NCBI GenBank assembly: GCA_964540095.1
Contig: CAZILH010000001.1
Coordinates: 2,552 to 66,551, forward strand
Length of the DNA stretch: 64,000 nucleotides
Direction: 5' to 3'
From: an uncultured Gammaproteobacteria bacterium
Lineage (GTDB): Bacteria > Patescibacteriota > Patescibacteriia > UBA1558 > GWA2-36-10
Positions 543 to 29,878 of the stretch are shown piece by piece. Below the pieces are notes generated by a model. The model saw nothing but the letters and a program-made list of their open reading frames with translations. It searched no databases and was not told where the DNA came from. The translations under genes were made by a program, and so were the position numbers. Numbering within the stretch: the stretch's first letter is position 1; every line of letters begins with the position of its first letter.

Positions 543-1244
543 TTATCTAAATTTTTTTTGTTTCTCCCGCCACTCCTTAATCAATTTATGATTACCAGAA
601 AGCAAAACTTTCGGTACTTTCAAATTCATAAATTTATCTGGTCTAGTATATTGTGGGTATTCAACATTAAATTTTTTTGCCTGCTTATCATAGACCCCAA
701 AAGATTCATCAGCCACTGATTCTTCTTTGCCTACCACTCCTTTGACCAGACGAGAGACGCTGTCAACTACACAAGCCGCAGCCAGCTCTCCGCCAGTCAA
801 AACAAAATTGCCTAAAGAAATTTTTTCATCAATAAACTTATCAATGCGCGCATCAATTGCCTCATAGTGCCCAGCAATCAAAATCAGGCGATCATATTTG
901 ACTAATTGTTTTACTTTATTTTGATCCAAAGTATTGCCACGCGGTGTCAATAAAATAATCCTAGTTGTCTTGCTTTTGATCTTGCATATTTTTTTCAAAG
1001 TTTTGACAACCGGTTCGATTTTTATGACCATACCTGGTCCACCGCCATAGGGGGTGTCATCAACTGTTTTCCTTTTATCAGTCGCGGCTTGACGGATATC
1101 ATGAGTACGAATATCAATTAACTTTTTATCGCGCGCTCTTTTTAAAATTGAAGAATCAAAATAGCTATCTAAAATATTGGGAAAAATTGTCAGGATATCA
1201 AATTTCACCCGGTTAGAAATCATTTTTTGTTTATCTTTTTTCAT
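543..1244 (-). CDS. trmD: tRNA (guanine37-N1)-methyltransferase
   Basis: DILTIFP...YGGGPGMV motifs typical of TrmD/SPOUT; about 233 aa; lies downstream of rpsP and the KH-domain protein, as in the canonical operon. Confidence 0.9.
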   Translation of the reverse strand: MKKDKQKMISNRVKFDILTIFPNILDSYFDSSILKRARDKKLIDIRTHDIRQAATDKRKTVDDTPYGGGPGMVIKIEPVVKTLKKICKIKSKTTRIILLTPRGNTLDQNKVKQLVKYDRLILIAGHYEAIDARIDKFIDEKISLGNFVLTGGELAAACVVDSVSRLVKGVVGKEESVADESFGVYDKQAKKFNVEYPQYTRPDKFMNLKVPKVLLSGNHKLIKEWREKQKKFR

Positions 1245-1324
1245 AAAGTAAAATATATAACTTATTTATTTTTACATTTTCACACAAACCCTCTTAGAAT
1301 AAATTTCTAACCGGGCTCATAAAA

Positions 1325-2230
1325 TTATTGTAACCCCATTTCTTTTTTATAGCCCTCCAGCCATTCCGGCAAATTGACTTGCGGTTCCCAACCCAACAAT
1401 TTTTTAGCTTTTCTGTTATCAGCCAAACTTTCTTTTGGTTCCAAGCGAGCCGGGATATTTACACTTGGTCCGCCAATCATTTTGGCCAGCTCATTGATAC
1501 TGTAGCTGTGTCCTCGACCTAAGTTTATGACCTCGCCCTGACCCACAGTAGCACTTTCCATGGCTAACATATTTCCGCGGACAATATCAGCTACATTGGT
1601 ATAGTCGCGGCGATTTTCGCCATCACCGACTATGGTCATTGGCTCATTTTTTAATCTCTGCGACACAAAAATTCCCATGACCAGACAATAGGCGCCTTCC
1701 AGGGCTTGTCTTTTGCCGTAGACATTAAAATAACGCAAACAAACAGTTGGCAGATCATAGACCTGAGTGAACAAGCGACAATACATTTCGCCAACATATT
1801 TTTGCAAACCATAGGGACTCAAAGGTTTTGCTGGCATATCTTCCACTAGAGGCATTTTGTCTTGATCACCATAAGCCGAAGACGAGGCGCTGTAAATAAC
1901 TTTTTTTACTTTGGCATCTCGAGCCGCCACCAAAACATTGAGTGTGCAGGTCAGATTCATTTCGTTAGAAAATATCGGATCCTGGATAGATGGCTGAACG
2001 CGGGGAAAAGCCGCTAGATGAAAAACATAATCAACGCCCTGAAACAAGGGTTTGATGTCTGCAATATTTTTTAAGTCCAACAAATGAAACTTGGCCCTAG
2101 AATTGATATTTTCTTTTTTGCCAGTAGAAAGATTGTCAATAACCACTACTTCGTGGCCCTTGGCTACCAAAGCGTCAACTAGATTTGATCCTATAAAACC
2201 GGCTCCGCCGGTCACTAAACATTTTGACAT
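1325..2230 (-). CDS. NAD-dependent epimerase/dehydratase (UDP-sugar 4-epimerase family)
   Basis: N-terminal TGGAGFIGS Rossmann motif, SASSSAYGD and YxxxK (YGLQKY) short-chain dehydrogenase catalytic signature; start moved to MSKCLVTGG (2230) rather than upstream in-frame Met. Confidence 0.85.
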   Translation of the reverse strand: MSKCLVTGGAGFIGSNLVDALVAKGHEVVVIDNLSTGKKENINSRAKFHLLDLKNIADIKPLFQGVDYVFHLAAFPRVQPSIQDPIFSNEMNLTCTLNVLVAARDAKVKKVIYSASSSAYGDQDKMPLVEDMPAKPLSPYGLQKYVGEMYCRLFTQVYDLPTVCLRYFNVYGKRQALEGAYCLVMGIFVSQRLKNEPMTIVGDGENRRDYTNVADIVRGNMLAMESATVGQGEVINLGRGHSYSINELAKMIGGPSVNIPARLEPKESLADNRKAKKLLGWEPQVNLPEWLEGYKKEMGLQ

Positions 2231-6874: not shown

Positions 6875-6905
6875 ATCCAGCCTCTCGCGAGAGGCTGGAT
6901 TATTT
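6875..6905. terminator. palindromic bidirectional terminator (ATCCAGCCTCTCGCGAGAGGCTGGAT)
   Basis: 26-bp perfect palindrome between convergent genes; shares CTCTCGCGAGAG core with terminator at 4335-4373. Confidence 0.55.
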
Positions 6906-9464
6906 AGCGGCTATTTCATCAGCTTGATCAAAACTCATGGAAAGCAGTTTTGAGACACCATCATCGCCCATGGTCACACCATAAATAATTTTGGCGTTAT
7001 GCATGGTGGCTCGATTGTGCGTGATGGCAATAAATTGAGTTTTATTGGAAATTTCTTGCAGTATCTGACTAAAACGAACTGAGTTGGCTTCATCCAAAGC
7101 AGCATCAACCTCGTCTAAGAATACAAACGGCGAGGGATTGTTGGAAATAATAGCGCAAATCAGAGCAATAGAGGTCAGCGCTTTTTCTCCGCCAGACAGC
7201 ATGCTGATACCCGACAATCTTTTACCTGGAGGCGTGGCTTTGATCTCAATACCATATTGTTTTTGAATTTTCTTTTCTGGAATTTCGCCATCAACACCTT
7301 CGACTTCCTCACCATTGCTGATAATATTTTCTTTAATATCCAAAATCAATTCAGCTTTGCCACCAGCAAACAATTTTTTGAAATAAGAATCAAATAGTTT
7401 GTTGATATTGTGAAAGGCCTGATCAAATTGTTTGGATATTGACTCATCTAGATCTTTGATTATTTTTTCTAAGTGCGCTATGGCCTCATTCAGATCGTCG
7501 CTCTGTGTTTTCAAGAATTGATAGCGTTCATTGACTTGGCTATATTCTTCCATGACAGCCGGATCAATGCCACCAATTATTTGTAATTGATTTTTTAAAC
7601 TAGCGATTTGAACCCGACTGGCCTCAGTATCAATCTGCCCCACTTTCTTGACCTGAAAGTCGGCCATTTCCTCGCCAATTTCTCGATTCAAATCTTCTTG
7701 CTTGGTCTCCAGACGAGCCAAAACAACTTTAATTTCATTTAACTTGCTATTTTTAGTATTAAACTCCTGCTGTATTTCGCGAAAATCTTTTTGGGACTGT
7801 ACCAAGCTGCTTTTCTTTTTTTCCTCTTGCTCATTGAAAGCGCGCACTTCTTTTTCAATGCTGGCAATTTTTTTATTCTGCGAATCAATTTTGGCTAGCA
7901 GAATTTCTAGTTGATCTTTCAAGCCCTTATTGTCCTGCTTATTTTCAGCTAGATTTTTACGCTCATTCTCTAACTTTATTAACTCTTGTTTGTCTTTGTT
8001 TAATTGTTGATTGATCAAAGCAATTTCTTGATCGGCCATGGCCAATCTAGTCTTGGCCTCATTGACCTCGGCCACCATATTATCCTTGGTCAGTAATAAT
8101 TGATTGAATTTTTCCGTCCAATCTTGATTGGTGTTTTTGGCTGGCCGAGAAAAATAATTTTTCACTTCCCACAAACTAGCGGTTATTTGCTGACACAATT
8201 TTTTCAATGACTCCAATTTGTCTAGAGCATCAATGTTTTCCAAAGCGCGTTCAAAATCTTGCTGTTTATCCAACAGCGCCGTCACCTTGTGGCTTATTTT
8301 TTCATTTGACCACTCATCATTGTTGTTCTTGACTTCGTCTTCTAATTTTTTAAAATCGGCTAAGATAACTTTTTGCTTGTTTTCTAAATCCAAAACCTGC
8401 TCTTGGGTTTGTTTTTGGCGGTGCTGTTTTTCCTCTAGGTGCAAATTTTGCAAATTAACTTCATTGGCTAGTGTATCTAATCTTTTTTTCAGCCAAACTA
8501 TATCTACCTGGCCAGTAGAAATCAATTGCACATCCATCTGCCCCTCAATAATGGCTTTTTCTTTGAGCGAACTATTGAGCTCATCCTGCGCTTGGCTCAG
8601 GCGATTTTGCAGATGATCAAAACTATCTTGACGACTGCGCCCTTTTTCTTCTTTTTCCAAACTAGTTTGCAAATCAACTAATTTTTGATTCAAATTTGAA
8701 ACTTCTTTGACTGAGGTCTGATACTGATCTTTATGACTAGACAATTCGCTGTTCAATTGATTGCTCAAAAAACTATAATAATCAGTTTGTAAATTATTCA
8801 AATCCCTAATTAATTGTTCTCTTTTTTCCAACCTTTTTACTTGCCGAGTCAAGCTACGCAAGTGTGGCTCCAATTCATTCAAAATCTGGCTGGTCTGACC
8901 TAGATTATTTTTGGCGCCTTCTAGCTTATTAATGGCTTGCTCTTTTTTGATCTGAAATTGACGAACGCCAGTGGCTTCATCAAAAAATTCTTTGCGCTCA
9001 GCCGATGATGAGGTCAGGATAGAGTCAATCATTCCCTGGCCAATGACGCTATAAGTCTTCTGGCCAAAATTGGCCTTGGCCAAGAGTAATTGCACATCCA
9101 TCAAGCGCACTCGGCTGTTATTAATCAAATACTCGCTCTCACCATTGCGATCAATTTTGCGAGTAATAATAATTTGCTCAAAATCTACATCAGCCAGATG
9201 GTCTTGATTGTTGAGATACAAACTAACTTGCGCAAAGCCCAAGCGCCCTTTTTTATCAGAGCCAGCAAAAATTACATCTTCTGATTTTTTGCCACGCAAA
9301 GTTTTGGAGCTTTGCTCGCCCAAGACCCAGCGGACAGCGTCAGCAATGTTTGACTTGCCTGAGCCATTTGGTCCGACTATGGCTGTCAATTCACGATTAA
9401 AAAAAAGCTCTGTGCTGTTGGCAAAAGATTTGAACCCCTGAATTTCTAGTTTTTCCAAATACAT
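6900..9464 (-). CDS. smc: chromosome segregation protein SMC (short form)
   Basis: N-terminal Walker A GPNGSGKSN, long coiled coils, C-terminal LSGGEKALTSIALICAI signature and Walker B FLDEVDAALD; start at MYLEKLEIQGFKSF. Confidence 0.9.
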   Translation of the reverse strand: MYLEKLEIQGFKSFANSTELFFNRELTAIVGPNGSGKSNIADAVRWVLGEQSSKTLRGKKSEDVIFAGSDKKGRLGFAQVSLYLNNQDHLADVDFEQIIITRKIDRNGESEYLINNSRVRLMDVQLLLAKANFGQKTYSVIGQGMIDSILTSSSAERKEFFDEATGVRQFQIKKEQAINKLEGAKNNLGQTSQILNELEPHLRSLTRQVKRLEKREQLIRDLNNLQTDYYSFLSNQLNSELSSHKDQYQTSVKEVSNLNQKLVDLQTSLEKEEKGRSRQDSFDHLQNRLSQAQDELNSSLKEKAIIEGQMDVQLISTGQVDIVWLKKRLDTLANEVNLQNLHLEEKQHRQKQTQEQVLDLENKQKVILADFKKLEDEVKNNNDEWSNEKISHKVTALLDKQQDFERALENIDALDKLESLKKLCQQITASLWEVKNYFSRPAKNTNQDWTEKFNQLLLTKDNMVAEVNEAKTRLAMADQEIALINQQLNKDKQELIKLENERKNLAENKQDNKGLKDQLEILLAKIDSQNKKIASIEKEVRAFNEQEEKKKSSLVQSQKDFREIQQEFNTKNSKLNEIKVVLARLETKQEDLNREIGEEMADFQVKKVGQIDTEASRVQIASLKNQLQIIGGIDPAVMEEYSQVNERYQFLKTQSDDLNEAIAHLEKIIKDLDESISKQFDQAFHNINKLFDSYFKKLFAGGKAELILDIKENIISNGEEVEGVDGEIPEKKIQKQYGIEIKATPPGKRLSGISMLSGGEKALTSIALICAIISNNPSPFVFLDEVDAALDEANSVRFSQILQEISNKTQFIAITHNRATMHNAKIIYGVTMGDDGVSKLLSMSFDQADEIAAK

Positions 9465-9521
9465 AAATAAAAAAATAACAACTGTTAGCGTTATTATTTT
9501 AACATAATTTATACTTTTAAT

Positions 9522-9730
9522 AAATATAAAGCCCCCGTCGACAAGTTGTTGTGTCTTGGATGAGACGGGGGCAAAGAATGAACGGGCGCCACAGCTATGA
9601 GTGGTCACTAGCCCTATCATGGGCTAGAGCTCCAGACACAGGGTCCGCGGCTACGGCTGAAGGACTCGCCTCAATTTCAACGAGTTCCACTCGTTACCTC
9701 TGTGGCGCCCGAAACGAAAACGAACAACGA
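9522..9730 (-). ncRNA. putative structured small RNA B (about 200 nt, GC-rich); identity unresolved
   Basis: Minus-strand TTGACA-17-TATCAT promoter (RC of ~9737-9765); 11-bp long-range stem gggcgccacag/ctgtggcgccc enclosing several hairpins; ends in 9-bp stem-loop gcccccgtc...gacgggggc plus T-run; no convincing ORF. Confidence 0.3.
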
Positions 9731-9782
9731 ATACAGATGATAGCAAACTAACCAGTAAATGTCAATGCCAGCCAAATACTTT

Positions 9783-10050
9783 AATAAAAAAATTAACCCT
9801 CCCATAGCCGTAGCTTTTGGGAGGGTTGAGGTAGTGGGTCGCCGCATCAATCGAAGAGGCATCGCTGTGGTTTAGCAGTTTTGAACACCGCAAGTGCATC
9901 TTGTCTCTACAGGAGGAAACGCTCTTGGTCTTGGCACGAAACTGTCCCGCCGGATCCCAGACTTCGATCTCGATCTAGACCGTGTGACCACAGCGATGAA
10001 GGCCTTTCCTCTTTGCTCGCGACGACCCCACAAAGGTGGCATGAGCGAAC
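9783..10050 (-). ncRNA. putative structured small RNA A (about 265 nt, GC-rich rod-like fold); SRP-RNA/6S-like candidates, identity unresolved
   Basis: Perfect minus-strand TTGACA-17-TATAAT promoter (RC of ~10057-10085); 12-bp perfect long-range pairing catcgctgtggt/accacagcgatg nested in outer stem gggtcgtcgc/gcggcgaccc; apical UCC-GGCG-GGA resembles SRP domain IV UCC-GGAA-GGA; terminator aaccctccc...gggagggtt plus T-run. Confidence 0.3.
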
Positions 10051-10109
10051 ACAATAATTATATTATGCCTTAATTTTTTTGTCAAAGTTTATTTATTAAA
10101 AAAAGGGAT

Positions 10110-10802
10110 TTACCATCCCTTTACTTTCAGGGCCTTAGTAGCGGCCGCTGTCTGGGCCTCTTGCTTGCTATAGCCCTCACCATCAGCCACCAATTCTTTA
10201 TCTAAGTATACACCGATAATAAATTTTTTATTATGATCTGGCCCTGATTCTGACAACACCCGATAACGCGGGGTGACATTGTTTATCTCTTGGGCTTTTT
10301 CTTGAAAGCGACTTTTGGCGTCAATATATGTTTGCGAAGCAATGATGTCTGGCAAAGTCACTAGTATATTTTTTTTAATAAACTTATCAACTACGCGAAA
10401 TCCTTGATCAAGGTAGATGGCTCCCAATAGAGCTTCCATGGCATTGGCCAAGATATAACCGCGGGCTTTTTTGTTGGTGTCTTGGGACTCACCCTTACTC
10501 AAATACAAAAAACCATAAACACCCAGCTTCTCCGCAATCGTGGCTAGGTGCGTAGCATTGACTAAAGCTGAACGCCAGTTAGTCAGAGTTCCTTCATTCT
10601 CCTGATAATTGTGATACAAATAATCAGTGACCGACAGTTCCAAAACCGCGTCACCCAAAAACTCCAAACGCTCATTTTGCTCTATTGGAAAATCTTTATG
10701 TTCATTCAAATAAGAGCGATGCACCAAAGCGTTTTTCAAAATATCCGTATCCTTAAATTTCACTTCCAGCTTGTCTTCCAATAAAGAAATATTTTTTTGC
10801 AT
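10110..10802 (-). CDS. rnc: ribonuclease III
   Basis: ERLEFLGDAVLELSV RNase III signature; C-terminal dsRBD. Confidence 0.9.
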   Translation of the reverse strand: MQKNISLLEDKLEVKFKDTDILKNALVHRSYLNEHKDFPIEQNERLEFLGDAVLELSVTDYLYHNYQENEGTLTNWRSALVNATHLATIAEKLGVYGFLYLSKGESQDTNKKARGYILANAMEALLGAIYLDQGFRVVDKFIKKNILVTLPDIIASQTYIDAKSRFQEKAQEINNVTPRYRVLSESGPDHNKKFIIGVYLDKELVADGEGYSKQEAQTAAATKALKVKGW

Positions 10803-10803
10803 A

Positions 10804-11667
10804 CTATTCCAAATTTAACTTTTGCCAAGCCATGTTAAAAATATCCTTGGCATTGTCATAGCCCAAAACATCCAAAACCTCGTGCCTAGGGTACCACTTT
10901 ACATCCAGCAATTCAGAAACTTTTGGCACTATGATTTCCTTGTCTTTGGTCTCGACCAAAAAATATTTTATTAGTTTGCGGTAGGGCTTCACCTCTGGCT
11001 TATGTACCTTGACTTGGGTCTCACCCAGATAATCTTTGACTACTAGATTTTTCAAGCCGGTCTCTTCAAACAACTCTCGAGCTACGGCCTTTTCCAAGCT
11101 TTCACCTTCATTGACGTGACCTTTGGGGAAAGTCCACTTACCATAAGCATCCAGCAACAATACAAAATAATAACCATCTTCTTCCTGACGATAAATCACA
11201 CCGCCGGCTGACACTTCTTTGATACCCTGACTGACTAAGGTCTGTTTTTCACCTTTACTAATCATTTCTTTGTAGATGCTACCCAAAACGCCATTAACAA
11301 ATTTGCCGCTAGCATCACCGCCAAAAGCTTTGGCTAGCTCTATGGCTTCATTGATGGCTACTTTTGGTGGTATGTCATGATCCATCTTCAACTCACAAAT
11401 ACCAATGCGCAAAACATTACGGTCAATCAAAGTAATTTGGTCTATCGGCCACTCTGGGGCAAATTTACCAATCAACTTATCAATGGACTTCTGATTGGCT
11501 ACCACTTTTTCAATCAAATTCAAAGCAAAACCTTGATCGTCAAATTCCGGAGCAAATTCTTTTTGATTAAATTTCAAAATGTCACCAATATTTCCTTGGT
11601 GATTATTAAAATCCCACTCAAAGAGTGCTTGTAAAACAATAGTTCGAGCTAAATGACGATTAGCCAT
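10804..11667 (-). CDS. nusB: NusB antitermination factor fused to a C-terminal NUDIX hydrolase domain
   Basis: N-terminal half near-identical to NusB core ([32 protein letters not shown] versus E. coli [32 protein letters not shown]); C-terminal half carries Nudix box [23 protein letters not shown]. Confidence 0.85.
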   Translation of the reverse strand: [287 protein letters not shown]

Positions 11668-11670
11668 TGC

Positions 11671-11865
11671 TTATTTTTTGTTTACTTGGCTTTTGGTGGC
11701 TACTTTTTTTTCACCCTTATAGTAACCACATTTATTGCAAGCGCGGTGTGGCAATAATATTGCTCCGCAATTTTTACACTTGGTGGTACTGGCTTTTTTC
11801 AAAGCAAAATGCGACGCCCTGCGACGCGCTGAACTCTTGGTAAGTTTCTTTGTAGGTAAACCCAT
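11671..11865 (-). CDS. rpmF: 50S ribosomal protein L32
   Basis: Basic about 64-aa protein with C-x2-C...C-x2-C zinc ribbon (CKNCGA...CNKCGYY), typical L32. Confidence 0.85.
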   Translation of the reverse strand: MGLPTKKLTKSSARRRASHFALKKASTTKCKNCGAILLPHRACNKCGYYKGEKKVATKSQVNKK

Positions 11866-11962
11866 AATTTTTTTATTAGTTTCGTGATTTTAGCTAAATT
11901 TCCTATTTTGGTCAAGGAAGACCAAGTAAATCCCCGTCAATTATACCAAAGTTTAGGACTAT

Positions 11963-12195
11963 TGACAAACATAAAAAAACATGATATTATGACCCATCTA
12001 TTTAGAAAAGCACCTTAATTAGCGTTTTTAATATTTTTTCAGGCAACTGTGTCCACGACAAGCATGGGAATCATTTTTTTCGTCTAATTTGGCTACGGCT
12101 GAATTATTTCAAAAAATGGTTTTCTTGGACACAGCTGCTTGGAAAAATAATCTATCGTGGCCATATAAAAAAACGTCCCGCACTGCGGGACGTTT
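11963..12195 (+). ncRNA. orphan promoter-to-terminator unit (about 200 nt), candidate sRNA
   Basis: TTGACA-17-TATTAT promoter at 11963-11991; 13-bp long-range inverted repeat gcaactgtgtcca/tggacacagctgc; terminator aaaaaacgtcccgcactgcgggacgttttttt; only tiny ORFs (7 and 18 aa). Confidence 0.3.
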
Positions 12196-12197
12196 TT

Positions 12198-14075
12198 TTA
12201 TTGACTTGGTGTTGTACTAGGAGTGGTGGTGGCCGTACCTCCACTAGCTTCAGCAGCAATTTCTTCGGCCGTAGCACCCACCAGGCAAACTGCCTGCCAA
12301 GGCACATAGTGACTAGAAAAAGTGACTTTGACTGGTTCTGGTTTGTTTAAATATTGAACAATATAATCAAACTTAGCATCAGCTCCGGCGTGGGCACTCT
12401 CCGTACACTTAGTTTGGCCTACTGGTAAATTGGTGGTTTTTACAATTTTTTTCGGCGCTGGAGAAACTACATTATAGATTATCGGCTTGGTGGTAGTAGC
12501 CACGCGACCATCTGCTGTCCCCCAAAAATCAAAATATAATTTTGTGCCCTCTATTCTGGTTTGAATCAAAATATAATTACCAGTGTCATTCAAAAATTTT
12601 AAATCTGGCTTAGGGTCATAAATCGTGGCATCCATGCCAGCGGGCTCATAATAAACCACCCGATAAGAATGATTGCGTCTTTCGGTGATTGGCAGACCAG
12701 TACTCAGAGCCGCTCGAAAAACAGTGGTGCCGATCTGACACAAACCCCCGCCATACTCTGGTATTGTTTTGCTGCCCTTGATCACCAACTCCTGCTTGTA
12801 GCCATGCTCACCATCAATGTCGCCCAAGGCCGTAATCAAAGAAAACTCTTCGTCAACATTGATAAGCAAACCATTGAGCGTGTCCGCCCCAACTCCTATA
12901 TTGTGTATGCGATTGGGGGGACTGCCCTTGAAATCCGATTCGCCAGTACCCAAAAGCGTGCCAATACCCAAATCATTGGCGTCGCTATTCATTATTTTTG
13001 GTTTGACTGTTTCTACAACAATATCAAAATTATTTTTATTAGAACCCAATATCTTTTCGGCATTAGCTATTGTCTTGGTCCAATCAATCATCTTGCCTTC
13101 TTGGCTAGCCATAAATTCCGAAACCTTGCCGTTGTTTAATTTGAACTTGGCATCCTGAACCAAAACTTCAATATCTGAACTTAAGCCCTGATCATCAAAA
13201 TATTTTTTTGCTTTTTCAATGTCAAAACCTAAATACGGTTTATTTTTATTAAATTTAATTTGTAGCCACTGTCGCCAATCAGCATTAGCAATAGTTGTTG
13301 CCTGCTCATTATAATGAGCTACCAAATCTCCTTGCTGAGTGGTGTTGATAATTTGACTACGAAACTTATCTATTACCGCGCTAGTGACTATGGGTTTGTC
13401 CTCGACCACTACTAAATTAATTTCTCCTGTCTGCAATTTTTTTATTTGCTCCTCAGTGTCTGACATGGCCTGCTCATAGGTAAATGTCTGGCCAATAATC
13501 TCTGGATTTATCTTCAAGCCACCGGCTGATTCAAACTCAAAACTAGCTTCTTTTTTGCTAGGCAACAAACCCTTGAAATCTTCCTCCAAAATACTGCGAT
13601 GACGCTCCTTATCCCAAGTATAATCAAGCGACCAAGTTTTGCCTCCCAGCATTACGCTAATTTTATTCAACAAATTAGCGGGCCGCTCATCTTTTTGAAA
13701 TTTTAAAATTTTATCCAAACTTTTTTCCATCTGCCACATGACCAAAGGAAAAGAGCTGTCAGCCGAACCAGCGCTAATAATAGGATAAATGGTGGACTTT
13801 TTGCCTTGTCCCATATAGACGAAGCCATCGCGACTAAAAGTGTCCAAATGCTCTTGGGTTTTCTTTTTGGCCTGCTCATAGGTCAGCCCGCCAATATTAA
13901 CACTGCCAAGTTTTGTTCCTGGCAAAAAAACATTGGCATACTTGTAGTTGACAGTGGCATTAGCCACAAAAACAGCTACCAATAAAAAACAAAAAACCGC
14001 TGCTACAATCAGAATTATTTTTAGCGGCCAATGCTTGTGCTTTTCTTCTGCAACAATTTTATCCTTCAGTGTCAT
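12198..14075 (-). CDS. VanW-family protein with N-terminal TM anchor
   Basis: EYGGGLCQIGTTVFRAAL matches the VanW domain GGGxCQxSTT motif; single N-terminal TM. Confidence 0.7.
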   Translation of the reverse strand: MTLKDKIVAEEKHKHWPLKIILIVAAVFCFLLVAVFVANATVNYKYANVFLPGTKLGSVNIGGLTYEQAKKKTQEHLDTFSRDGFVYMGQGKKSTIYPIISAGSADSSFPLVMWQMEKSLDKILKFQKDERPANLLNKISVMLGGKTWSLDYTWDKERHRSILEEDFKGLLPSKKEASFEFESAGGLKINPEIIGQTFTYEQAMSDTEEQIKKLQTGEINLVVVEDKPIVTSAVIDKFRSQIINTTQQGDLVAHYNEQATTIANADWRQWLQIKFNKNKPYLGFDIEKAKKYFDDQGLSSDIEVLVQDAKFKLNNGKVSEFMASQEGKMIDWTKTIANAEKILGSNKNNFDIVVETVKPKIMNSDANDLGIGTLLGTGESDFKGSPPNRIHNIGVGADTLNGLLINVDEEFSLITALGDIDGEHGYKQELVIKGSKTIPEYGGGLCQIGTTVFRAALSTGLPITERRNHSYRVVYYEPAGMDATIYDPKPDLKFLNDTGNYILIQTRIEGTKLYFDFWGTADGRVATTTKPIIYNVVSPAPKKIVKTTNLPVGQTKCTESAHAGADAKFDYIVQYLNKPEPVKVTFSSHYVPWQAVCLVGATAEEIAAEASGGTATTTPSTTPSQ

Positions 14076-28616: not shown

Positions 28617-28880
28617 TTAACTGGTCTTAAATAATATTTCTATTAATTTATTTAATTCTTTTTTCTTGTTTTTGCTTCCTGACTGATAACAGCCGTTCAC
28701 CTTGTCAGTGATCAGTAAGCGCGTGACTGAGTCCAGCGAAGCGCGCGCGGCCATAACAACTCGCACCACTTCTTCCACTTCTCTTTTTTCGCCGTACATT
28801 TTTTCAATCGCGCGAATCTGACCCTCAATACGATGAAGTTGGGAATATATTTTTTGTGGATGACAAACTTGTTTGCTCAT
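28617..28880 (-). CDS. CsoR/RcnR/FrmR-family metal- or stress-sensing transcriptional repressor
   Basis: HRIEGQIRAIEKM core helix of the DUF156/CsoR family; about 87 aa. Confidence 0.7.
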   Translation of the reverse strand: MSKQVCHPQKIYSQLHRIEGQIRAIEKMYGEKREVEEVVRVVMAARASLDSVTRLLITDKVNGCYQSGSKNKKKELNKLIEILFKTS

Positions 28881-29172
28881 ATACCCTCTAGGGGTATTAT
28901 AGCAAGGGCATAAAAATACGTCAAGTGGTGGGGTGCTGGTGACTAGTTATACTTCTCGACTCTCTCTCGACGAGCTCGAGATCGCTCGAAGAAATAAGCT
29001 TTTGTTCGAGTAAGGTTATGCAAAGCATAACTGCATCGAGAACTACGTATGTTCAGAACTTCTCGACTCCACCTTTCGGTGTCGCTCGAAGAAATGTGCT
29101 CTCTCAAATATTTGACAATAATCCTAATAGGTGATATAATATAGTGTTTCCATAACCCGGGAGGTTCTTTCT

Positions 29173-29445
29173 ATGACAGACCGCAAGGGTCCTTCGCCCG
29201 TAAGTGCGCTCTGCATCTGGGTGGCGTATCTGGCGGCAATCGCACTCGAGTCCCTGCTTCTCTGCCATACTTGGTGGCAGGTCGCGGCGCTGGTGGTAAT
29301 CGGGGTCGTGGTGTTCCTGATCATTATGGTTCCAGCTGGCGTGCTCAACATCAAGCGCTATGCCTCAGTACACATCCTTCTCATCGCCATCCTCGTCCTT
29401 TCTGCCCTCGTCTACAAGGCCCTCTACAAAACCATCTTCGGGTGA
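29173..29445 (+). CDS. GC-rich cassette: small 2-3 TM membrane protein
   Basis: GGGAGG RBS; hydrophobic; terminator gccccgc...gcggggc plus T-run at ~29455-29510. Confidence 0.45.
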   Translation: MTDRKGPSPVSALCIWVAYLAAIALESLLLCHTWWQVAALVVIGVVVFLIIMVPAGVLNIKRYASVHILLIAILVLSALVYKALYKTIFG

Positions 29446-29878
29446 CAACACATCACCCAGAATGGAGATTGAGCCCCGCGGTACACACGCTGCGGGGCCT
29501 TAATTTTGTTTAATTTTAATAATAAATTGGCTAACCCAGTTAGAAATTTACCTTAGTTTGCATATTAGATGAACTTATCGGCAACTAAGTGACAATTTTA
29601 CTAATAATGTAACGTGAAATACTCAAAATAATTTCTAACTGGGCTAATATTAGCCAAATATATTGCTTCTGTAAAGAAACGATAATAAATACTGGCCTTG
29701 ACAAATACTGATAAATAATATATTATTTTATGTTATTTTAAGTACTTTAAATTACTTGCAAAAACGCGGTAGTCATAGCCAAAAACGGCTTAAAAATAGG
29801 CCTTTTCTGGCTATGACTACCAATTCCGGTGGTCCGCTGGCGCCAAATGGCACATGTGCCAAAAAAAGGAGTGAAGAC

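Follow-up and report, generated by a model that had tools for sequence, protein, structure and literature searches.

We studied the gap between the genes rnc and smc in a stretch of 64,000 nucleotides (nt) of contig CAZILH010000001.1, hereafter the window, where two putative small RNA (sRNA) genes, units A and B, lie in tandem on the minus strand (9522-10085). The gap is bounded by rnc, which encodes RNase III (10110-10802, minus strand; Pfam domains Ribonuclease_3 and dsrm), and by smc, which encodes SMC (6900-9464, minus strand; Pfam SMC_N), and the units start downstream of the rnc terminator (10122-10102). An earlier note, made by a model from the letters of this DNA, had described here a GC-rich stretch carrying two minus-strand units with consensus promoters, long-range stems and terminators, and all these elements were located where it had placed them. 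The G+C content is indeed elevated, although modestly rather than extremely: 0.493 in the region versus 0.411 in the window, i.e., the 94.5th percentile among windows of the same size.

The promoter of unit A (10057-10085, minus strand) consists of TTGACA (10085-10080), a 17-nt spacer and TATAAT (10062-10057), thus matching the consensus at 12 of 12 positions; the 64 kb contain three copies of the exact pattern TTGACA-N17-TATAAT, versus 0.04 expected. The predicted transcript would cover 9786-10050 (minus strand), its 5' end placed by promoter geometry and its 3' end by the T-run of the terminator. It folded at -105 kcal/mol, with z = -4.6 relative to dinucleotide shuffles, and none of 200 shuffles folded equally well. 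The 5' leader, with the motif UCGCUCAUGCCAC(C) at 10035-10048, is mostly unpaired in the predicted fold and is followed by three stacked helices. The outer or closing stem P1, GGGTCGTCGCG/TGCGGCGACCC, pairs 10028-10018 (5' strand GGGUCGUCGCG) with 9846-9836 (3' strand UGCGGCGACCC); the stem that the earlier note had described is present, but it has 11 base pairs (bp), two G-U pairs included, and not 10. P2 joins GAGG (10008-10011), inside a conserved GCAA(A/G)GAG segment, to CCUC (9856-9859), and the inner stem P3, CATCGCTGTGGT/ACCACAGCGATG, is a perfect 12-bp pairing of 9998-9987 (5' strand CAUCGCUGUGGU) with 9871-9860 (3' strand ACCACAGCGAUG). The apical domain (9872-9986), hypervariable and dispensable (see below), holds the element UCC-GGCG-GGA, TCCGGCGGGA (9954-9945). 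The terminator (9786-9827) has a 9-bp G+C-rich stem, AACCCTCCC...GGGAGGGTT at 9827-9795, capped by a GC-UACG-GC mini-hairpin, and ends in the U7 given by T7 at 9792-9786.

Unit B has a putative promoter at 9737-9765 (minus strand) formed by TTGACA (9765-9760), 17 nt and TATCAT (9742-9737), with 11 of 12 consensus matches and a TG extended -10. Both ends of its transcript (9522-9730, minus strand) are predicted; the RNA folded at -86.6 kcal/mol (z = -5.0, with 0 of 200 shuffles equal) and its consensus fold contained 58 pairs. The 12-bp closing stem P1, CGGGCGCCACAG/CTGTGGCGCCCG, pairs 9711-9700 (CGGGCGCCACAG) with 9594-9583, where the 3' strand is CUGUGGCGCCCG. In the interior (9599-9692), the RNAalifold consensus placed a 6-bp helix P1b (GAGUGG at 9687-9692 with CCACUC at 9599-9604) that closes a four-way junction with the hairpins h1 (9665-9684), h2 (9630-9662) and h3 (9608-9627). 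The terminator (9522-9572), GCCCCCGUC...GACGGGGGC with the U-rich tail UUUAUAUUU, was present in the predicted fold and in the consensus. Its hairpin, with the stem GCCCCCGTC...GACGGGGGC at 9572-9531, is as the earlier note had described it, but the tail, TTTATATTT, is an interrupted and not a clean U-run; a generic terminator scan did not call this terminator, owing to its 24-nt loop. Sliding 150-nt z-scores computed over all the intergenic gaps of the window gave no discrimination and were dominated by terminator hairpins.

Conservation and covariation among relatives

The homolog set was collected using rnc as anchor and comprised 80 loci from genomes and 80 from metagenomes, all of Patescibacteria, L007 being the only fetched locus labelled Komeilibacteria. 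The rnc-anchored scan of metagenomes gave about 15 extra loci, at roughly 70% identity, and no relatives of intermediate divergence, so that the power to detect covariation was low. Both units were complete only in L001 (identical to L081) and L002, whose rnc genes are 97% identical to that of the window. The fourfold-degenerate sites of rnc and smc served as the neutral benchmark: they were 60-73% identical between the window and L001 or L002, and 36-48% identical, i.e., saturated, between the window and L003 or L004.

Against the 60-73% of this benchmark, the leader and basal helices of unit A were 87-98% identical between the window and L001 or L002, and the core of unit B was 84-91% identical among the three. 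Both terminators were 88-95% identical among close relatives: that of unit A 88-95% in L001 and L002, being also retained in L005, and that of unit B 91-94%. Two parts changed at the neutral rate: the spacers, at 44-75% identity, and the unit A apical domain, at 54-72%, where the alignments of the window, L001 and L002 contained 8-20 gap columns. Both hexamers of the unit A promoter were unchanged in the window and in L001-L005 despite the saturation of neutral sites, and the leader motif UCGCUCAUGCCAC was identical across the same six genomes, the fourfold-degenerate sites of which are 36-73% identical; in the unit B promoter, TTGACA and TGCTA(A/T)... were preserved in L001 and L002. Judged by this benchmark, the leader, the basal rod, the core of unit B and the terminators are clearly under purifying selection. 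The comparison showed selection in unit A on the predicted 5' leader, on P1 and P2 at the base and on the terminator, with neutral drift in the 115 nt of the apex; in unit B selection covers the whole predicted core among close relatives.

The more distant loci agreed with this division of unit A. Its interior measures about 70-90 nt in L003-L005, with the apical domain reduced to about 70 nt, versus 171 nt in the window, and in L014 the stem sequence GGGUCGUCG...CGGCGACCC closes a loop of 6 nt; P3 was kept in L001 and L002 and is missing from L003-L005. What survives in six unit A homologs at saturating divergence is the leader, P1, P2 and the terminator. P2 appears as GAGG/CCUC in the window, GGAG/CUCC in L003 and L004 and GGAGAC/GUCUUC in L005, its conserved form being GCAA(A/G)GAG paired to CUC(Y)UC. 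In an alignment of P1 with six distinct rows, including the distant L008, L012 and L014, 98% of the cells were paired and 5 of the 11 pairs were compensatory, flanking a GGUCG/CGACC core that did not vary; in register-shifted controls the pairing was 28-61%. For P1 of unit B, with few sequences (four distinct rows), 91% of the cells were paired and 5 of the 11 flanking pairs were compensatory, and the core GCGCC/GGCGC was unchanged in the window, L001, L002, L003, L012 and L015. Hairpin h3 presented two further compensatory pairs (A-U to G-C and G-C to A-U), and in L001 the unit B terminator has gained a C-G pair through a compensatory paired insertion, one C in the 5' arm and one G in the 3' arm. 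The second units of L003, L012 and L015 share the unit B architecture and the P1 core, with interiors unrelated in sequence to that of the window. These comparisons showed that the putative distant relatives of unit B keep its architecture only: a leader, a closing stem with the GCGCC/GGCGC core, a second long-range helix, three or four hairpins and a terminator.

Turnover of the site and a third unit

The gap between rnc and smc measured 63 to 2137 bp in relatives whose rnc shows at least 66% identity. Other relatives carried two to four units per gap, of the same build (promoter, leader, long G+C-rich closing stem, terminator) and mostly unrelated in sequence. At the position of unit B, L004 (4333-4718, plus strand) and L005 (about 1218-1574, plus strand) presented genes for hypothetical proteins of 127 and 118 amino acids (aa), 40% identical (E = 2e-19) and preceded by the ribosome-binding site AGGAGG. 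The cargo of L008 consists of two membrane proteins and that of L010 and L011 of a secreted protein; no confident Pfam family was found for the cargo proteins, the sole match being a sub-threshold Biotin_lipoyl in a 158-aa open reading frame (ORF) of L087. We rejected the units as decayed forms of the L004/L005 protein gene, since the sole tblastn match crosses a stop codon.

Downstream of the units, smc has a promoter of its own, an extended -10 of the form TATGnTAAAAT (TGTTAAAAT at 9504-9496 in the window), found in essentially every relative, L013 and L016 included. Its 5' untranslated region (UTR; 9465-9510, minus strand) contains, clade-wide, a small hairpin, AAUAACGCU...AGUUGUUAU, and a U7 run abutting the AUG, with no Shine-Dalgarno sequence; this terminator-like region may be a regulatory element of smc itself. 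Because smc keeps promoter and hairpin even in gaps of 63 nt, the predicted units are best described as insertions between the rnc terminator and the smc promoter, at a site of fast turnover. A dif/Xer site, TTATGTTAAAAT, considered upstream of smc, was discarded: the motif is the conserved smc extended -10 in all relatives, and there is no GC-skew switch here. A segment that precedes the unit A promoter (…ACACGGTGGATAAATGTATTTTGAC) occurs in two or three tandem copies in L004 (3706-4036), L005 (725-869) and L002 (3718-3877), the extra copies each followed by a short G+C-rich hairpin, and its GGTGG is the inverted complement of the leader CCACC. Positions 3767-3866 of L004 are a run of N.

A third unit, C, was found beyond rnc. 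Upstream of rnc lies a gene for a NusB-NUDIX fusion (10804-11667, minus strand; Pfam NusB at residues 7-133 and NUDIX at 152-266), preceded by a 64-aa ORF (11671-11865, minus strand) that reads as ribosomal protein L32 (rpmF). Unit C (11962-12200, core 12030-12151, plus strand) is a promoter-to-terminator non-coding unit divergent from rpmF, with the promoter TTGACA (11962-11967), 17 nt and TATTAT (11985-11990), including a TG, and a bidirectional terminator (12166-12198) common to a convergent VanW-like gene. Its RNA was predicted as a rod, about 50 bp long, that carries a 10-nt bulge inside a 22-nt segment, CUGUGUCCACGACAAGCAUGGG, both invariant; it gave z = -8.6 and 43 consensus pairs, 14 of them compensatory, and corresponded to no Rfam family. 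At the syntenic position its covariance model scored 120-136 bits in L001-L004, L006-L013 and L015-L019 and 71-88 bits in L021, L023 and L034, so this putative RNA is far better conserved than units A and B and makes a stronger case for a new curated RNA family. Paralogy with A and B was rejected, as the model matched neither of them. The three units share the 9-mer GCTACGGCT, found exactly three times in the 64 kb versus 0.25 expected: at 9806-9814 (minus strand) in A, 9650-9658 (plus strand) in B and 12092-12100 (plus strand) in C. In A and C it forms the GC-UACG-GC tetraloop cap, and the transcribed strand of B carries its complement, giving 9-10 bp of A-B complementarity that is kept in L001 and weakened in L002. 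The 9-mer (GCUACGGCU) is most simply a favoured UACG-tetraloop cap; the A-B complementarity is not maintained in L002.

Known RNA families and rival explanations

The earlier note had offered two readings of the units, divergent housekeeping RNAs or novel sRNAs. A search with Rfam 15 at gathering score returned three tRNAs only in the window and no family match in 19 related loci. On the region alone, with permissive filters and E≤10, there was no match to signal recognition particle (SRP) RNA, 6S RNA, RNase P RNA or transfer-messenger RNA (tmRNA) on the transcribed strand, and the plus-strand matches at this threshold were terminator or A/T look-alikes. ARAGORN called three tRNAs in the window, in agreement with Rfam, and no tmRNA, the hallmarks of which are a tRNA-like acceptor and T-arm and a frame encoding a tag peptide. 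The note had also coupled two outcomes as jointly adverse to its proposal, no Rfam match and no covariation in relatives; the first is what these searches gave, whereas covariation was found (see above).

Comparison with each housekeeping RNA pointed the same way. Like bacterial SRP (4.5S) RNA, unit A is long and hairpin-like and has a short hairpin-like element, UCC-GGCG-GGA, which we take to be loosely similar to UCC-GGAA-GGA of SRP RNA. The sequence is there as the earlier note had reported it, but in the predicted fold it forms an arm of a multibranch loop and no rod apex, and it is not SRP domain IV, in which a universally conserved GNRA tetraloop and symmetric and asymmetric loops bind Ffh: the loop GGCG is non-GNRA, the AGCA/GGA symmetric loop was unrecognisable, and the element, lying in the neutrally drifting apex, is unconserved, being TCCTGTGAG in L001 and deleted in L002. 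6S RNA (RF00013), which binds the sigma70 holoenzyme and serves as template for product RNAs, is likewise a highly expressed rod of about 200 nt, with its 5' and 3' parts in a long interrupted helix and poor sequence conservation across phyla; the units differ from it in lacking a large central bubble with a long helix on either side, the apex of A being multibranch and dispensable and B forming a four-way junction, and in the long unpaired 5' leader of both. Bacterial RNase P RNA has a P4 pseudoknot, the conserved regions CR-I to CR-V and a length of about 330-400 nt. The segment GAGGAAAGGCC of unit A, presumably one base off CR-I GAGGAAAGUCC, has no complementary P4 3' strand and is lost in L003-L005, where the motif GAGGAAAG becomes AAGGAGUG; units of about 265 and 210 nt moreover fall short of the length of a bacterial RNase P RNA or tmRNA. 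Very strong promoters and a rod-like basal structure would suit housekeeping RNAs, but the negative searches, the loss of both look-alike motifs, an interior that drifts neutrally down to 6 nt in L014, and the existence of two relatives (L013 and L016) with no units at the site leave highly divergent SRP, 6S, RNase P RNA or tmRNA of the candidate phyla radiation (CPR) as a very remote explanation. The units look like ordinary lineage-specific small RNAs.

Four other explanations were weighed against this reading. The position of the units directly downstream of rnc raises the idea of RNAs that serve RNase III as substrates or decoys or that regulate it, their basal duplexes being cleaved or bound for maturation or for titration of the enzyme. 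RNase III needs about two helical turns, and the stacked basal rods (11 + 4 + 12 bp in A, 12 + 2 + 6 bp in B) together with stem bases conserved in sequence beyond pairing, as protein contact predicts, would agree with it; the resemblance extends to rncO of Escherichia coli, a long double-stranded RNA element physically linked to rnc. However, rncO sits in the 5' leader of the rnc mRNA, whereas the units lie downstream of the rnc terminator and would be separate transcripts from their own promoters. The units also track the clade and not rnc, the gap after rnc being mostly short where smc does not follow, L013 and L016 have rnc and smc with no units, and the helices are broken by internal loops, all of which makes this explanation unlikely. 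Somewhat more doubtful are transcribed remnants of hotspot cassettes, i.e., selfish or decaying cargo without function for the cell. The gap varies from 63 to 2137 bp in close relatives, with unrelated cargo that includes hypothetical membrane and secreted proteins; modules upstream of the promoters are tandemly duplicated in L002, L004 and L005, the G+C content is above the genome background and the interior of unit A is neutral. Such remnants would not be expected to show purifying selection on leader, basal rod, B core and terminators against a synonymous-site benchmark, nor compensatory changes in their stems. The 64-kb window contained no further copies of the units, nor did 160 loci outside their rnc-smc gaps, and no recombinase or tRNA lies nearby; pattern scans of viral contigs returned one 18-nt chance match for a 17-mer and only chance-level matches for a 14-mer. 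A dispersed repeat or miniature inverted-repeat transposable element, which would be present in multiple copies bearing terminal inverted repeats, was rejected in turn, the units being single-copy in the part of the genome covered by the window and in the 160 loci.

The order promoter, structured domain, terminator and gene is the classical layout of a riboswitch-like leader or attenuator, and about 58 nt separate the unit B terminator from the start codon of smc downstream, so that unit B, or A and B together, could act in cis on read-through into smc. The promoter that smc has of its own in every relative argues strongly against unit B as its attenuator, the extended -10 and the 5'-UTR hairpin lying downstream of the B terminator and being conserved whatever lies upstream. 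The interior of the B family is unconserved between L003, L012, L015 and the window, unlike ligand-binding aptamers, no obvious anti-terminator pairing was seen by eye and there was no Rfam riboswitch or leader match; we thus hold cis control of smc to be very unlikely. Missed small protein genes are barely conceivable. The gap has ORFs of 27-66 aa on both strands, and an AUG falls within the invariant leader of unit A; however, none of these ORFs is preceded by a ribosome-binding site, and none is credible, as the earlier note had concluded. Close homologs differ by indels of 1, 2, 5 and 7 nt within conserved sequence, which are not multiples of three and break the frames, and the peptide from the leader AUG varies in length and sequence in L003 and L005. 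As a control, two other gaps with strong promoters proved to contain small protein genes, with GGGAGG sites and z of about -1, i.e., folding no better than shuffles. A "gap" of 1.2 kb holds two small genes, at 28617-28880 (minus strand) and 29112-29498 (plus strand): the first is an 87-aa ORF that reads as a CsoR/RcnR-like repressor, and the second encodes a 90-aa hydrophobic protein (29173-29445, plus strand) with a GGGAGG site, a perfect TTGACA-N17-TATAAT promoter (one of the three in the window) and a terminator at 29473-29498.

Interpretation and comparison with known systems

Units A and B are probably separate, strongly transcribed sRNA genes of a narrow clade of Patescibacteria related to Komeilibacteria, belonging to no described family. 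The novel sRNAs of the earlier note are thus supported by two promoter-terminator units that are non-coding, structured, under purifying selection and marked by compensatory changes. They have what is generally expected of trans-encoded sRNAs: an own promoter and intrinsic terminator, an intergenic position, absence of coding capacity, conservation above neutral and compensatory change, the last from small sets partly selected for pairing. Several observations weigh against this interpretation. The distant members of the covariation alignments were chosen partly for stem formation, and the sequences are few (six and four distinct rows). The transcript ends are predictions from sequence alone, and the opposite strands of both units fold about equally well, so the strand call depends on the promoters and T-runs. 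In L013 and L016 rnc and smc are present without units, the whole gap being 63 nt, and protein genes replace units in L004, L005, L008, L010 and L011; the function would therefore be dispensable or very lineage-specific. As to targets, a scan of the leader against about 60 gene start regions of the window, in itself uninformative, found pairing no better than that of shuffled leaders, and the complement of the leader is absent from the window at up to two mismatches.

If the units are sRNA genes, their RNAs would act in trans as stand-alone molecules, the functional contact being made by the single-stranded 5' leader, by the sequence-conserved base of the closing stem, or by both, while the remainder would serve as a stable scaffold protecting the RNA. 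We tentatively favour base pairing of the leader to a conserved RNA target, which is possible without being probable, and rank slightly below it a stem base that binds or titrates a protein. Of 24 non-redundant leaders from the gaps, 12 contained a motif G-Y-Y-C-Y-U, defined post hoc, at 12-25 nt downstream of the -10 box, versus about 10% of background windows. Instances of the motif (UUGUUCUU, UUGCUCUUC, UUGUCCUUC) come from the gaps of L001-L019 and L084-L094 and from 10030-10045 and 9715-9725 in the window, and the promoters bearing it include those driving the L004/L005 protein gene. The fit of this pyrimidine-rich motif to a common 5' functional segment is only a lead. It is quite improbable that the rnc-smc site hosts modular RNAs in which stem base and leader form a handle for a protein, possibly RNase III, and the hypervariable apex, far from being junk, is a rapidly diversifying specificity module; if true, episymbiotic CPR bacteria would possess RNAs acting as guides or decoys, and the site would be a hotspot dedicated to the gain and loss of such units.

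In the tiny, packed genomes of CPR bacteria, about 560 nt of non-coding DNA would here be kept under selection behind the strongest promoter class of the window, suggesting that small RNAs specific to a lineage are maintained in these bacteria, and that a single intergenic site, flanked by two housekeeping genes, can be a cradle for the turnover of sRNA and small protein genes. A literature search found no description of regulatory RNAs in CPR bacteria or Patescibacteria and nothing matching the units. The practical value is modest: two candidate sRNA families and a better-conserved third for RNA family databases, and the removal of a tempting but mistaken annotation as SRP, 6S or RNase P RNA.

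Two other known groups of RNAs resemble the units in part. In the Y RNAs and bacterial YrlA, the 5' and 3' ends also form a conserved basal stem, the distal domain is variable and the RNA ends in a U-run; a conserved basal stem is what is expected of a protein-binding site. Unlike these RNAs, units A and B have no Rsr/Ro (TROVE) gene nearby, no tRNA-like domain or T-arm motif and no Rfam match, and they carry a 20-nt unpaired 5' leader that Y RNAs lack. Trans-encoded sRNAs such as RybB and OmrA/B are likewise intergenic, with an own sigma70 promoter and an intrinsic terminator; their most conserved part is a 5' single-stranded segment, and a fast-evolving body, narrow range and rapid turnover are features that the units, of about 200-260 nt, have in common with them. 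The units have no sequence or Rfam relation to a described sRNA, and what sets them apart from this type is a body of unusually large size and high G+C content, in which an 11-12-bp closing stem surrounds a multi-hairpin domain. Among small RNAs, they are thus mildly unusual in their size, in the combination of closing stem and variable interior, and in their tandem arrangement at a site that turns over fast in a reduced genome.

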